Assembly (NCBI RefSeq): GCF_030013205.1
Contig: NZ_CP122648.1
Length of the DNA: 64,000 nucleotides
From: Escherichia coli
GTDB lineage: Bacteria; Pseudomonadota; Gammaproteobacteria; Enterobacterales; Enterobacteriaceae
Strand: one strand, 5' to 3'
Under the pieces are notes generated by a model. It was not told where the DNA came from and made no database searches. It saw only the letters and a list, made by a program, of their open reading frames with translations. The position numbers and the translations under genes were made by a program. Numbering within the stretch: position 1 is the first letter of the stretch; each line of letters opens with the position of its first letter. This document shows, in pieces, positions 2,309 to 51,140 of the stretch.

Positions 2309-3910
2309 ATGTTTAATCGTATTCGAATTTCGACCACGCTGTTTTTAATTTTGATTCTCTGCGGGATCTTGCAGATTGGCAGTAACGGCATGTCTTTTTG
2401 GGCATTTCGCGACGATTTGCAACGACTGAATCAGGTCGAGCAGAGCAATCAGCAACGTGCGGCATTAGCGCAAACTCGGGCGGTAATGTTACAGGCCAGT
2501 ACCGCGCTGAACAAAGCGGGCACTCTGACGGCGCTTAGCTATCCGGCGGATGACATTAAAACGTTGATGACGACGGCGCGCGCCAGTCTGACGCAATCCA
2601 CCACGCTGTTTAAAAGTTTTATGGCGATGACTGCGGGCAATGAGCACGTCAGGGCGTTGCAAAAAGAGACGGAGAAAAGTTTTGCCCGCTGGCACAACGA
2701 TCTCGAACATCAGGCGACCTGGCTTGAAAGTAATCAACTTTCGGATTTCCTCACTGCGCCGGTGCAGGAATCACAGAATGCGTTTGACGTTAACTTTGAG
2801 GCCTGGCAGCAGGAGATCAACCATGTGCTGGAAGCTGCCAGTGCGCAAAGCCAGCGTAACTATCAGATTTCGGCGCTGGTGTTTATCAGCATGATTATTG
2901 TTGCGGCGATCTACATCAGCAGTGCGCTGTGGTGGACGCGCAAGATGATTGTTCAACCACTGGCCATTATCGGTAGCCATTTTGACAGCATTGCTGCGGG
3001 TAATCTGGCGCGTCCGATTGCGGTATATGGTCGCAATGAGATCACCGCCATTTTTGCCAGTCTGAAGACCATGCAGCAGGCTTTGCGTGGGACGGTAAGT
3101 GATGTGCGTAAGGGAAGCCAGGAGATGCACATTGGTATCGCGGAGATTGTCGCAGGCAATAACGATCTCTCAAGTCGTACCGAACAGCAGGCGGCATCGC
3201 TGGCACAAACGGCCGCCAGTATGGAGCAATTAACCGCCACGGTAGGGCAAAACGCCGATAACGCGCGCCAGGCGTCGGAACTGGCAAAAAATGCCGCGAC
3301 AACGGCGCAGGCGGGCGGTGTTCAGGTCAGTACCATGACTCACACCATGCAGGAGATCGCCACCAGCTCGCAAAAAATTGGCGACATTATCAGCGTTATC
3401 GACGGCATTGCTTTCCAGACCAATATTCTGGCCCTGAATGCGGCAGTGGAAGCGGCTCGCGCCGGAGAGCAGGGGCGTGGTTTTGCGGTAGTGGCAGGTG
3501 AAGTGCGCAATCTTGCCAGCCGTAGCGCGCAGGCAGCAAAAGAGATCAAAGGGCTGATCGAAGAGTCAGTCAATCGTGTCCAGCAGGGGGCGAAACTGGT
3601 GAATAACGCCGCCGCGACCATGACTGATATTGTCAGTTCGGTGACCCGCGTGAACGACATTATGGGAGAAATTGCTTCGGCCTCGGAAGAACAACGGCGG
3701 GGGATTGAGCAGGTTGCACAGGCTGTCAGCCAGATGGATCAGGTGACTCAGCAGAACGCCTCCCTGGTAGAAGAAGCGGCGACGGCAACGGAACAACTGG
3801 CGAACCAGGCTGACCATCTTTCGTCGCGTGTGGCGGTATTTACCCTTGAAGAACATGAAGTAGCACGACATGAGTCGGCGCAATTACAAATTGCGCCAGT
3901 GGTATCCTGA
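2309..3910 (+). CDS. tap: Methyl-accepting chemotaxis protein IV (dipeptide/pyrimidine chemoreceptor Tap)
   Basis: 533 aa from ATG 2309 (MFNRIRIS); Tar paralogue with conserved signalling domain. Confidence 0.93.
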
Positions 3911-13285: not shown

Positions 13286-14041
<756 letters not shown>

Positions 14042-14087
14042 TTTTTACCGTTGCATCATGTCGCCCAATATGATGCTTGCTCGTACC

Positions 14088-14120
14088 AGGCCCCTGCAAT
14101 TTCAACAGGGGCCTTTTTTT
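14088..14120 (+). terminator. Rho-independent terminator downstream of cutC
   Basis: aggcccctg-caatttcaa-caggggcc followed by a T7 run. Confidence 0.8.
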
Positions 14121-26211: not shown

Positions 26212-26385
26212 GTAATAGCATAAAAAATTTATTTTTTCAGGAGTCGCAATGTATATTTTTATTACGCATTTCTTCGCTGAATATGTAATATTTAAATATT
26301 TGCTTCCAATATAACCTGTAGAATAAATTATACTGCGCCATTTTTCAGATCATCGGGACGCCTCGCAAGTTTTCTTCATCCTTCG

Positions 26386-26401
26386 CTGGATATCTATCCA
26401 G
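26386..26401. promoter_or_regulatory. LexA (SOS) box upstream of ruvAB
   Basis: CTGGATATCTATCCAG, a perfect CTG-N10-CAG palindrome about 50 nt upstream of the ruvA start. Confidence 0.8.
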
Positions 26402-26452
26402 CATTTTTTTATCATACAGCATTATCTTTGATTCATTACGCAGGAGCGTCAT

Positions 26453-40370: not shown

Positions 40371-41549
40371 CTAAGCTTGTACTTTTATCTGTGCTGCGGC
40401 GTGCTTTGCGCGCTCAATCGCTTCATCAACACTCTCTGCAGTAGCCAGTGCCACCCCCAGACGACGGCTGCCATCAATTTCCGGCTTACCAAATAAACGA
40501 ATCTGCAAACCTGCGCCTACGGCATTCTGCACATTATCAAACGTGACATTCTCACTGGTCAGTTGTGGCAGGATAACGGCAGAAGCTGCAGGACCATACT
40601 GACGGATCCCGCCAACCGGAAGTCCGAGAAAGGCTCGCACATGCAGGGCAAACTCCGAGAGATCCTGAGAAATTAACGTCACCATCCCGGTATCATGTGG
40701 GCGAGGGGAGACCTCACTGAAAATCACCTCATCACCACAGACAAACAGCTCGACACCAAACAGACCATAACCGCCCAGTGCCAGCACCACTTTACGGGCA
40801 ATCTCCTGCGCACGTTCCAAAGCCAGCTGGCTCATTTGCTGTGGTTGCCAGGATTCACGATAGTCGCCATCTTCCTGGCGATGACCTACCGGTGCACAGA
40901 AATGGACGCCATCCACCGCGCTGACGGTTAGCAGGGTAATTTCGAAATCAAACTTAACGACGCCTTCAACAATTACGCGGCCCGCACCGGCGCGACCGCC
41001 TTGCTGAGCGTACTCCCATGCATGAGCAAGTTGCTCTGCAGAACGAATAAACGTCTGCCCCTTGCCGGAGGAACTCATCACCGGTTTAACAATGCAGGGA
41101 TAGCCGATTTCAGCAACCGCCTCGCGGAAAAGGTTTTCGTTATCGGCAAAACGATAAGTGGAAGTGGGCAGCTGCAGCTCTTCTGCCGCCAGGCGACGGA
41201 TACCCTCGCGATTCATCGTTAATTTCGTTGCGCGCGCGCAGGGGACAACATTCAGTCCTTCCTCTTCAAGTTGGATCAGCATATCGGTGGCAATAGCTTC
41301 GATCTCCGGCACGATATAATGTGGTTTTTCCAGTTCAACCACACGGCGTAATGCATCACCATCAAGCATATTAATGACATGGGAGCGATGCGCGACATGC
41401 ATGGCTGGTGCGTCGGCATAGCGATCGACGGCAATCACCTCTACGCCGAGACGCTGACACTCGATTGCCACTTCTTTACCCAGTTCACCGGAGCCTAATA
41501 ACATCACGCGAGTTGCTGCCGGACGCAGCGCAGTGCCTAATAACGTCAT
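40371..41549 (-). CDS. purT: Formate-dependent GAR transformylase PurT
   Basis: 392 aa; ATP-grasp. Confidence 0.96.
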
Positions 41550-41586
41550 AACGAATATCCCCTGATTAATTCCGCGCGCAGTATAA

Positions 41587-41602
41587 ACGAAAACGTTTGC
41601 GC
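41587..41602. promoter_or_regulatory. PurR box upstream of purT
   Basis: ACGAAAACGTTTGCGC matches the recalled PurR operator ACGCAAACGTTTGCGT at 14 of 16; 38-53 nt upstream of purT. Confidence 0.7.
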
Positions 41603-41647
41603 GTGTCTTTATTGCTGATGTTGATTTCCCAACCGAAAAGAAATATA

Positions 41648-41663
41648 CTGTATAAAATCACAG
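41648..41663. promoter_or_regulatory. LexA (SOS) box upstream of yebG
   Basis: CTGTATAAAATCACAG (CTGT-N8-ACAG) 20 nt upstream of the yebG start. Confidence 0.85.
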
Positions 41664-41682
41664 TTATTATGAGAGGCTGCAA

Positions 41683-41973
41683 ATGGCGGTTGAAGTTAAA
41701 TACGTAGTCATTCGTGAGGGCGAAGAGAAAATGTCGTTTACCAGCAAAAAGGAAGCCGATGCTTATGACAAAATGCTTGATACGGCGGATCTGCTTGACA
41801 CCTGGCTGACAAATTCTCCAGTGCAAATGGAAGACGAGCAACGTGAAGCCCTTTCGCTATGGCTGGCAGAACAAAAAGATGTGCTGAGCACCATTCTGAA
41901 AACCGGCAAATTACCGTCCCCACAGGTCGTCGGTGCTGAATCCGAAGAGGAAGATGCCTCACACGCGGCCTGA
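41683..41973 (+). CDS. yebG: SOS-inducible protein YebG
   Basis: 96 aa; MAVEVKYVVIREGEEKMSFTSKKEADAYDKML... Confidence 0.92.
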   Translation: MAVEVKYVVIREGEEKMSFTSKKEADAYDKMLDTADLLDTWLTNSPVQMEDEQREALSLWLAEQKDVLSTILKTGKLPSPQVVGAESEEEDASHAA

Positions 41974-41991: not shown

Positions 41992-42396
<405 letters not shown>

Positions 42397-43545: not shown

Positions 43546-44715
43546 TTAAGCCGCAACCGTCTGTGTGACGGATTTACGCTGGCCTCCATGGGCAGAAACG
43601 ACGAGTCCCGCCGCTTGTAATTCCAGTATGCCCTTGCGTTTGATGTTGAGCGCCGCGTTGATATCGCGGTCATGTTCAACTCCACACTCTGGACACTGCC
43701 AGATGCGCTTATGTAATGGCATCTCCGACATTTTGTGACCGCAGCAGTGGCAGGTCTTCGAACTGGCGAACCATTGATCCAGTTTCACCAGATGCACACC
43801 TTTCTCTGTTGCTTTGTATTCCAGTTTTGTGATGAATCCAGACCATCCAGCATCGCCTATCGCACGAGCCAGATGGTGATTTTTCATCATATTTGCCGTT
43901 TTCAATGTCTCGACAATTACCGCTTGGTTTTCGTCAACAATTGCGCGAGATAACTTGTGCTGGAAATCGGCACGGGCACTGGCTACCCGTTCGTGAACGG
44001 CTGCAAGTTGTATTCTGGCTTTGCGCCTGTTTGCGCTCCCTTTTTTCTTACGGGACAGTGCTTTCTGCTTCCGGCGCAGGTTGCGACTTGCATTGATTAG
44101 GTGGCGGGGACTGGCAATTTTATTGCCGTCCGATTTGATGACAAAATGCGCCAGCCCCATATCCAGCCCTGTCACATTTGATATCAGTGCGGGCTTTGCC
44201 GGCGCTTCCATCCCGTCGTCACAGAGTAACGACGCGTAGTATTTCCCGGTTGCGCTGCGGCTCAACGTGATACTTTTCAGCATTCCCGTAATTTCACGAT
44301 GTAAACGCGCCTCAATCGGCAAGATTTTCGGTATTTTTATCGCACCATCAAGGACTTTTATGCCAACACAATGATAGCTCGATTGTCTGCCGTGTTTACT
44401 TTTAAAGGTTGGTTTACCTGCTTTCAGTTTCGGATTGAAAAAGTTAGAAAAAGCCACGTCGAGGTTAATTACCGCCTGCTGCAACGCAATAGAATCATAT
44501 TCTTTAAGCCATCCATACCGGCGGGATTTCTTCGCCACTGCAAGCAGTGGTTTGAGGTCTTTACGCGGGTTTAAATTTACGCGGTGCCGCTGGTAAGAAT
44601 GTTTCTTGATATGCAGAGCTTTGTTGTACGCAAAACGCACTGCACCGAACTGGGCGTTGATAAATTCAGCCTGTTCTGGTGTCGGGTAGATGCGTACTTT
44701 TGTTGCTCTTAACAT
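43546..44715 (-). CDS. tnpB: IS605-family TnpB (RuvC-like RNA-guided endonuclease, OMEGA effector)
   Basis: 389 aa; RuvC-I GLDMGLAHF, RuvC-II AVIVETL, zinc finger CHCC...CPEC, RuvC-III HDRDINAALNI; looks intact. Confidence 0.85.
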   Translation of the reverse strand: MLRATKVRIYPTPEQAEFINAQFGAVRFAYNKALHIKKHSYQRHRVNLNPRKDLKPLLAVAKKSRRYGWLKEYDSIALQQAVINLDVAFSNFFNPKLKAGKPTFKSKHGRQSSYHCVGIKVLDGAIKIPKILPIEARLHREITGMLKSITLSRSATGKYYASLLCDDGMEAPAKPALISNVTGLDMGLAHFVIKSDGNKIASPRHLINASRNLRRKQKALSRKKKGSANRRKARIQLAAVHERVASARADFQHKLSRAIVDENQAVIVETLKTANMMKNHHLARAIGDAGWSGFITKLEYKATEKGVHLVKLDQWFASSKTCHCCGHKMSEMPLHKRIWQCPECGVEHDRDINAALNIKRKGILELQAAGLVVSAHGGQRKSVTQTVAA

Positions 44716-44771
44716 AATCAGCGCTCATTGATATAATGCTTTTATTTTAACACTTTAGGTGAATATATCAA

Positions 44772-45197
44772 TTGAGTAATCATGATGATTTACTGGCGGG
44801 ATTTCTCCGCAAACGACACAGTGTCAGTAAGCTGGTTGTGCACCTTATTTTTACGACAAAGTATCGACGCAAACTATTCGACAGTCAGATGATCGCTCAG
44901 TTGCGTGAGGCTTTTGGCTCCGCTGCGGCAAAGCTTGAATGCGAAATTATTGAGATGGACGGGGAGCCAGACCATGTACACCTGCTGGTTGCCTACCCGC
45001 CAAAACTGGCGGTCAGTGTGATGGTCAATAATTTAAAATCGGTATCATCACGTTTGCTACGCCAGCAGAACGCGCATTTACGTATGCAGAGTAAAACGGG
45101 GCTTTTGTGGTCGAGATCGTACTTTGTCTGTAGCACCGGAGAGGCAACGATTGAAACGCTCAGAGCCTACGTTCAGAGTCAGTCAACACCTGATTGA
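44772..45197 (+). CDS. tnpA: IS200/IS605-family transposase TnpA (Y1 HuH)
   Basis: 141 aa; HuH motif HVHLLV, catalytic-Tyr region WSRSYFVCSTGEA; first in-frame start is TTG, so start uncertain. Confidence 0.8.
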   Translation: MSNHDDLLAGFLRKRHSVSKLVVHLIFTTKYRRKLFDSQMIAQLREAFGSAAAKLECEIIEMDGEPDHVHLLVAYPPKLAVSVMVNNLKSVSSRLLRQQNAHLRMQSKTGLLWSRSYFVCSTGEATIETLRAYVQSQSTPD

Positions 45198-45326: not shown

Positions 45327-48073
<2,747 letters not shown>

Positions 48074-50899: not shown

Positions 50900-51140
50900 A
50901 ACATTTAAGCTGATGGCCACCGCGCTTTTTATTGACCATTTTGCACGCAAACTGGAAAACCTGGCGTCGTCATCTATTCTTAAAGGGCAAGGCAACTAAG
51001 CCTGCATTAATGCCAACTTTTAGCGCACGGCTCTCTCCCAAGAGCCATTTCCCTGGACCGAATACAGGAATCGTGTTCGGTCTCTTTTTATCTGTTAAAA
51101 GCCAGAAGCATTCCCTTCGCTGACTTTATAGTCAACCATA
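50870..51140 (-). ncRNA. ryeA: Antisense small RNA RyeA (SraC) overlapping sdsR; ends approximate
   Basis: Known antisense partner of SdsR at this locus; 3' end assigned to the 50864-50899 terminator read on the minus strand; 5' end not determined. Confidence 0.4.
50987..51089 (+). ncRNA. sdsR: Sigma-S-dependent small RNA SdsR (RyeB)
   Basis: gcaaggcaactaagcctgcattaatgccaac...gaatcgtgttcggtctcttttt matches the SdsR sequence as I recall it; sigma-S-like -10 ctattcttaa just upstream; intrinsic terminator at 3' end. Confidence 0.7.

Follow-up and report, generated by a model that had tools for sequence, protein, structure and literature searches.

Can a short region between two divergent genes carry the operators of two unrelated regulons and still leave each promoter under its own regulator, or does binding at one operator influence the other promoter as well? 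The question is raised by the purT/yebG region of the Escherichia coli chromosome, in which a PurR operator of the purine regulon and a LexA operator (SOS box) lie close together. yebG is a classic SOS gene. We analyzed the region within a 64-kb window, the whole stretch of 64,000 nucleotides under study, which extends from cheW to yebQ. The identity of the two operators, the promoters in which they lie, and their fate in other species are described in this order, since all of them bear on whether the two regulatory systems are coupled.

Organization of the purT/yebG intergenic region

The annotation was taken from the strain K_EC180 (RefSeq), to which the window is 99.995% identical from position 510 onward. 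An 801-bp segment around the gap matches 5,425 of the 5,426 complete E. coli genomes, with purT and yebG annotated there. The divergent gap comprises 41550–41682 and is 133 bp in length, bounded by the end of the minus-strand purT start codon (41549) and by the ATG of yebG (41683). The first-pass annotation had placed a PurR operator facing purT and an SOS box facing yebG in this gap at a distance of 45 bp, and all of its coordinates are correct. The distance was recomputed between the 16-mers as 45 bp edge to edge, which corresponds to 61 bp from center to center. The distances to the start codons are 37 nt from the PurR box to the purT ATG and 17 nt from the LexA 20-mer to the yebG ATG. A promoter scan of the region gives one σ70-like promoter per strand. 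A sequence scan of 41450–41800 detected no terminator-like sites, and Rfam gave no match within or close to the intergenic region.

For comparison with other species, 30 diverse YebG proteins were aligned, and the alignment was used to fetch 80 species-level loci. In 63 of the 80 loci, purT is the divergent neighbor of yebG. The counts out of 63 species in Table 1 and below refer to these loci.

Table 1. Features of the purT/yebG locus in window coordinates
Feature	Position	Strand	Basis and remarks
purT CDS, formate-dependent GAR transformylase	40371–41549	minus	ORF list and RefSeq annotation of the near-identical strain
Likely purT ribosome-binding site, AGGGGA	41558–41563	minus	Reading of the sequence only; 8 nt before the ATG
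purT −10, TATACT	41580–41585	minus	Promoter scan; TATACT or TATAAT 1 nt from the PurR box in 61/63 species
PurR operator (pur box), ACGAAAACGTTTGCGC	41587–41602	unstranded	Motif search and matrix; ChIP-chip and Sort-Seq in K-12
purT −35, AAGACA	41604–41609	minus	Promoter scan; in 40/63 species, not conserved in more distant genera
Central spacer between the back-to-back −35 hexamers, 11 bp, unconstrained	41610–41620	unstranded	Alignment, SNPs, insertions
yebG −35, TTGATT	41621–41626	plus	Promoter scan; TTG exactly 17 bp from the −10 in 48/63 species
yebG −10, TATACT	41644–41649	plus	Promoter scan; overlaps the left arm of the LexA box
LexA operator (SOS box) 20-mer, TACTGTATAAAATCACAGTT	41646–41665 (16-bp core 41648–41663)	unstranded	Motif search and matrix
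Likely yebG ribosome-binding site, GAGAGG	41671–41676	plus	Reading of the sequence; GAGG/GGGG block conserved in the alignment
yebG CDS, DNA damage-inducible protein, PF07130	41683–41973	plus	ORF list and annotation
yebF, downstream of yebG	42040–42396		Reported to be co-regulated with yebG

Several features elsewhere in the window were also observed. The window starts within a copy of IS200C, which is inserted directly upstream of tar (1–530). This IS200C/tar junction is common to four of the 5,426 complete E. coli genomes, with ETEC4079 as the best match (100%), and an Rfam match, C0465, is found at 481–554, at the edge of IS200C. ISEc46, an element of the IS200/IS605 family with TnpB and TnpA genes, is situated between yebE and ptrB (43546–45197 and 45387–47412 for the element and the ptrB area), and ptrB carries a frameshift in the annotation of the near-identical K_EC180. 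Rfam also matches the MicL sRNA, which lies within and beyond cutC, and the antisense overlapping pair RyeA(SraC)/SdsR(RyeB) (13813–14120 and 50949–51093).

The PurR operator in the purT promoter

The PurR box ACGAAAACGTTTGCGC has two mismatches to the consensus ACGCAAACGTTTGCGT and is the sole match with three or fewer mismatches in the 64-kb window. It is self-complementary at 12 of the 16 positions and is thus an imperfect palindrome of the PurR (LacI/GalR-family) type, for which the consensus has a central CG. We scored the sites with symmetric weight matrices made from 13 PurR sites (Cho 2011) and 16 LexA sites (Thomassen 2010), from which the purT and yebG sites themselves were left out. 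The PurR box scores 19.8 bits, which is above the median training site. The box occupies 16 of the 18 bp between the −35 and −10 hexamers assigned here to purT, and thus lies inside the promoter in the manner of a PurR operator.

PurR binding and repression at purT, as well as the position of the site, are known from published experiments. Cho et al. 2011 (NAR) observed a ChIP-chip peak of PurR at purT, with the motif ACGAAAACGTTTGCGT, both with and without adenine, and derepression of purT in ΔpurR. In Belliveau et al. 2018 (PNAS), Sort-Seq was performed on both promoters of the purT/yebG intergenic region. There, the purT promoter gives −35 and −10 features with a repressor site between them that is seen only with adenine and is lost in ΔpurR, and mass spectrometry detects PurR pulled down on purT DNA only with hypoxanthine. 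The claim that this operator serves purT is therefore borne out by the matrix score, by conservation (described later), and by the published ChIP-chip and Sort-Seq data.

The base at position 16 of the box (41602) should be noted. The K-12 purT promoter used in these studies (Cho 2011; Belliveau 2018) is the same locus with the operator at the same place, and the flanks are identical save for a few SNPs. However, the window has C at position 16 (GCGC), whereas K-12 has T (GCGT). The C allele is found in 1,536 complete E. coli genomes (28%) and the T allele in 3,856, and both forms recur in other genera. The matrix gives approximately 19.9 bits to the C allele versus 23.0 bits to the T allele. 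The C-form 16-mer is identical to the purHD operator, which is bound by PurR according to Cho 2011. Corepressor-dependent binding and repression by PurR at purT are published for the K-12 allele. In the proposed mechanism, a PurR dimer loaded with hypoxanthine or guanine would sit in the purT spacer to exclude RNA polymerase, and purT expression would then drop together with the remaining pur regulon.

The LexA operator over the yebG promoter

The core of the SOS box, CTGTATAAAATCACAG, is an exact CTGT-N8-ACAG sequence, as in the cores of gammaproteobacterial LexA operators with their 20-bp TACTGT(AT)4ACAGTA-like palindrome, and is the sole one in the window. The box scores 20.7 bits with the matrix of 16 other LexA sites. 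The window is identical to the published yebG SOS box given as a 25-mer, TATACTGTATAAAATCACAGTTATT (Lomba 1997; Courcelle 2001; Thomassen 2010; Leiva 2024). The score and this identity uphold the assignment of the SOS box to yebG. A second strong LexA box, CGCTGGATATCTATCCAGCA, is present in the window at 26384–26403 upstream of ruvA and is the known ruvAB operator. Its score is not independent, since the site is in the training set of the LexA matrix.

The yebG hexamers assigned here are separated by a spacer of 17 bp. The −10 position is occupied by TATACT, TACACT, or TATGCT in 60 of the 63 species, and the TA of the −10 that protrudes from the LexA 20-mer is conserved in the alignment. From the hexamers, we infer a transcription start at approximately 41656. 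The LexA box then covers both the −10 and the start site, so that operator and promoter overlap. An alternative hexamer, TTGCTG at 41612, is located exactly 9 bp upstream of TTGATT at 41621. This distance should be noted, since in Belliveau 2018 the polymerase site of yebG was moved 9 bp downstream of an earlier computational annotation. TTGATT/TATACT is likely to be the yebG promoter, given that the arrangement TTG-N17-TATACT is retained across genera and that the offset of 9 bp fits the published correction. The earlier annotation probably used the upstream hexamer TTGCTG. A −10 inside the LexA spacer (TAAAAT, 41653–41658) was also considered and was rejected on the same two grounds.

LexA-dependent induction of yebG and the position of its site likewise come from published experiments. 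In Belliveau 2018, Sort-Seq of yebG with and without mitomycin C gives a LexA site and an RNA polymerase site and shows induction by mitomycin C. Leiva et al. 2024 list yebG as 4.4-fold up with AZT and 9.7-fold lexA-dependent, with a heterology index of 6.3. Thomassen et al. 2010 describe yebG as UV-induced, with a yebG–yebF transcript and LexA control of yebF. The yebG box of Salmonella is 17 bp from the ATG, as in the window; there, a single SNP in the box alters expression, and nalidixic acid induces the gene 41-fold. On the proposed mechanism, a LexA dimer lying over the −10 and the start site of yebG would block initiation, and DNA damage would lead through RecA-stimulated self-cleavage of LexA to induction of yebG together with yebF.

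Positions of the operators in other species

The 63 loci in which purT and yebG are divergent neighbors belong to Enterobacteriaceae and Erwiniaceae and include Escherichia, Citrobacter, Salmonella, Kosakonia, Phytobacter, Buttiauxella, Klebsiella, Raoultella, Cedecea, Erwinia, and Pantoea. Gap lengths range from 127 to 141 bp, save for two of 163 and 261 bp. Throughout these loci, PurR boxes of 18–23 bits lie 35–44 nt from the purT ATG, and LexA boxes of 16–29 bits lie 12–19 nt from the yebG ATG. In the whole set of 80 loci, the PurR box is conserved in 74. Immediately upstream of yebG, the best match is a LexA-type box in 79 loci, 75 of which are enterobacterial with 16–29 bits, and the remaining four are from Aeromonas with approximately 15 bits. 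The best LexA match just upstream of yebG (at 3001 of locus L065) in Yersinia nurmii reaches only 9.3 bits with the left arm lost, and the box seems to be degenerate in this species, unlike in the other Yersinia loci.

An alignment of the 62 compact gaps indicates which parts of the region are constrained. The purT −10, the PurR box, the TTG of the yebG −35, and the TATACTGT...ACAG block are conserved, whereas the central spacer varies in both sequence and length. The center-to-center distance between the boxes is 58–63 bp in 58 of the 63 species, and is 69, 71, 73, 93, and 188 bp in the other five. In all of these cases the larger distance is due to an insertion in the central spacer. The insertions are an 8-bp tandem duplication in E. 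whittamii, 10–12 bp at two Superficieibacter loci, approximately 32 bp in one Enterobacter species, and an ERIC-like palindromic element of approximately 128 bp in Klebsiella spallanzanii (locus L058, intergenic region 2740–3000). The last element is placed exactly in the spacer and matches each of the ERIC core primer sequences at 17 of 22 positions.

A more drastic separation is found in 11 genomes of Yersinia, Serratia, and Edaphovirga, in which dbpA, encoding an RNA helicase (772 bits versus a cutoff of 524), is located between purT and yebG. dbpA is oriented as yebG, and purT is divergent from dbpA. Though purT and yebG are separated by 1.7–2.1 kb in these genomes, the PurR box (19–23 bits) stays upstream of purT at 56–86 nt from the ATG, and the LexA box stays 24–27 nt upstream of yebG. 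The LexA box is also found where purT is not upstream of yebG at all, as a strong box (26.8 bits) in Pluralibacter and as a weaker LexA-like box with an imperfect right arm in Aeromonas. Each box thus follows its own gene across species, suggesting that each belongs to the promoter of that gene and that the pairing of the two is separable.

Natural variation within E. coli

Within E. coli, several intergenic SNPs fall between the boxes, at or next to the central spacer and the yebG −35. O157:H7 has one A-to-G change in the spacer of the LexA box and one change in the yebG −35. In E. coli MS 21-1, ISEc53 (ISL3-like) is inserted inside the yebG LexA box at the equivalent of window position ~41659, and this insertion parts the promoter and the left half-site from the remaining box and yebG.

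Probable independence of the two promoters

These positions suggest an answer to the question raised above. The region very probably consists of two independent back-to-back promoters under simple repression, in which each repressor acts on its own promoter only. The two boxes would share a short region because purT and yebG are neighbors in Enterobacteriaceae and Erwiniaceae.

One alternative is a cross-effect between the two systems, as the first-pass annotation suggested. PurR bound approximately 61 bp upstream of the yebG start would disturb α-subunit or other upstream contacts of the polymerase at yebG, or yebG transcription would alter purT through crowding or supercoiling; purine status and DNA damage would each modulate the gene of the other regulon. 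The geometry should be considered here. The −35 hexamers are just 11 bp apart, and the upstream footprints of two polymerases placed on the assigned promoters would overlap at approximately 41601–41628. The center of the PurR box would be at approximately −61.5 of the yebG start, and other regulators contact polymerase from such a position. With this overlap and this position, interference or supercoiling coupling is physically possible. The spacing between the boxes is also tighter in most of the species than we expected. In addition, a published genomic SELEX with σ38 RNA polymerase in vitro gave the strongest peak of the genome, 390-fold, in the 5′ part of purT and a further 63-fold peak in the purT/yebG spacer (K-12 coordinates of the peaks, 1,928,846 and 1,928,972). 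Such very strong binding suggests that polymerase traffic in the region may be heavy. PurR is on the region even without added adenine, as described in Cho 2011.

Contrarily, neither operator reaches into core elements of the two promoters at once. There are 18 bp between the end of the PurR box and the yebG −35, and 36 bp between the purT −35 and the start of the LexA box. The center of the LexA box would be approximately 82 bp upstream of the purT start, predicted from the hexamers at approximately 41573, and thus outside normal polymerase contacts. The PurR box would be at the edge of α-subunit reach at yebG, so an effect of PurR on yebG is the more plausible direction for any cross-effect, and supercoiling from divergent transcription is another possible route. 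The published data point away from both. In Belliveau 2018, Sort-Seq gave only polymerase and repressor features of the respective promoter, under a figure title stating that the method "distinguishes directional regulatory features." A literature search of main texts found no paper that assigns yebG to PurR or purT to LexA. In a published multi-stress meta-analysis, purT decreases along with the entire pur regulon, while yebG increases with the DNA-repair genes. Upon AZT treatment, the purine genes collectively tend to drop, and purR itself changes less than 2-fold.

The natural insertions are also against a cross-effect. Insertions of 8 to approximately 128 bp, or a whole gene in Yersiniaceae, separate the boxes, and both boxes are kept. 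This tolerance and the split in Yersiniaceae argue against a required spacing, and a spread of 60–63 bp, a third of a helical turn, argues against strict phasing. The near-constant spacing is mostly accounted for by the tight linkage of each box to its own promoter, which leaves a free spacer of 9–14 bp. We considered the 58–63 bp spacing as a coupling signal and, given the tolerated insertions, judged it to be mostly a by-product of boxes fixed in their own promoters. Taken together, a cross-effect is unlikely, and so is coupling between PurR and LexA in a weak form; if weak cross-talk did occur, it would be a small case in which promoters of metabolism and of the SOS response are coupled, with no new principle. 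The first-pass annotation is right that each operator serves its own gene within a shared 133-bp region, and its suggestion of an influence of one bound site on the opposite promoter found no support.

A more specific form of this alternative is that the spacing of approximately 61 bp is itself functional. PurR at approximately −61.5 would tune basal or induced expression of yebG–yebF, or SOS-induced transcription of yebG would relieve or deepen repression of purT by polymerase crowding or supercoiling. If this were true, one SOS gene would be linked to purine sufficiency. We rate it as slightly less probable still than a cross-effect in general.

A different alternative concerns the adjacency of the two genes, which might be selected because of a functional link between their products; for example, YebG could act after damage in a situation that needs formate-dependent purine synthesis. 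The divergent arrangement persists in 63 of the 80 species loci, as such selection would predict. However, these families share a conserved gene order in this chromosomal region in any case. Moreover, dbpA interrupts the adjacency in Yersiniaceae, Aeromonas and Pluralibacter lack it, and purT and yebG respond oppositely to stress. Selection for adjacency is therefore very improbable, and the reading of two independent promoters in neighboring genes is preferred.

Significance of the two sites

Simple pattern counts are weak evidence that both operators are genuine. At least one consensus match occurs in 37 of 100 shuffles of the 64 kb for PurR and in 49 of 100 for LexA, so that neither search is significant alone. 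A search for the perfect 20-bp LexA palindrome with three or fewer mismatches gave no match in the window, because the yebG 20-mer has five mismatches to the perfect palindrome. The pattern counts were therefore replaced by the weight-matrix scoring described above. The best scores among the shuffles are 18.4 bits for PurR and 19.4 bits for LexA, and none of 200 shuffles reaches the score of either site. Both sites are real and not chance matches, judging from the matrix scores, the conservation across dozens of genera, and the identity of the LexA sequence to the published yebG box. That one or both boxes are functionless chance matches, which the nonsignificant consensus searches and the imperfect LexA palindrome might have suggested, is practically out of the question given scores above all 200 shuffles, fixed promoter positions of both boxes across many genera, and refutation by published data from ChIP-chip, Sort-Seq, mass spectrometry, and lexA mutants.

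That two genuine sites come to lie in one region is a separate matter, and co-location of a PurR box and a LexA box by chance is plausible. With 35 PurR-bound regions and approximately 27 LexA boxes, taken from Cho 2011 and Leiva 2024, respectively, and with 2,000–2,500 promoter-bearing intergenic regions, which is our own estimate, approximately 0.4 shared regions are expected.

Comparison with known systems

Both operators and both promoters are already characterized in E. coli K-12, and the published PurR and LexA data make both sites known and functionally validated. The pair is thus an ordinary known one, of little importance beyond correct annotation. The present analysis adds the comparative argument for separable modules, the likely resolution of the yebG hexamers, and a catalog of natural variants. 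The variants, namely the common C/T polymorphism at the edge of the PurR box, insertions of IS and ERIC-like elements, and dbpA between the two genes in Yersiniaceae, are possible ready-made test cases.

The PurR-regulated cvpA–purF operon, which is outside the window, should be mentioned beside the purT/yebG region. A weak LexA-like motif, ACTGGAGCAAATCACAGC, is found upstream of a UV-responsive transcript at cvpA (Thomassen 2010). This operon may be a second meeting place of the PurR and LexA regulons, in addition to the purT/yebG region.

Among other divergent pairs with repressor sites in their promoters, uvrA and ssb are an example, and they share one LexA box. In Leiva 2024, uvrA and ssb have an identical heterology index. 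The uvrA/ssb region resembles purT/yebG in that a short divergent region carries back-to-back σ70 promoters and a repressor operator. The two regions differ in how the operators are distributed: uvrA/ssb has one operator and belongs to one regulon, whereas purT/yebG, for which no shared control is seen, has two operators of unrelated regulons, each of which overlaps only one promoter.
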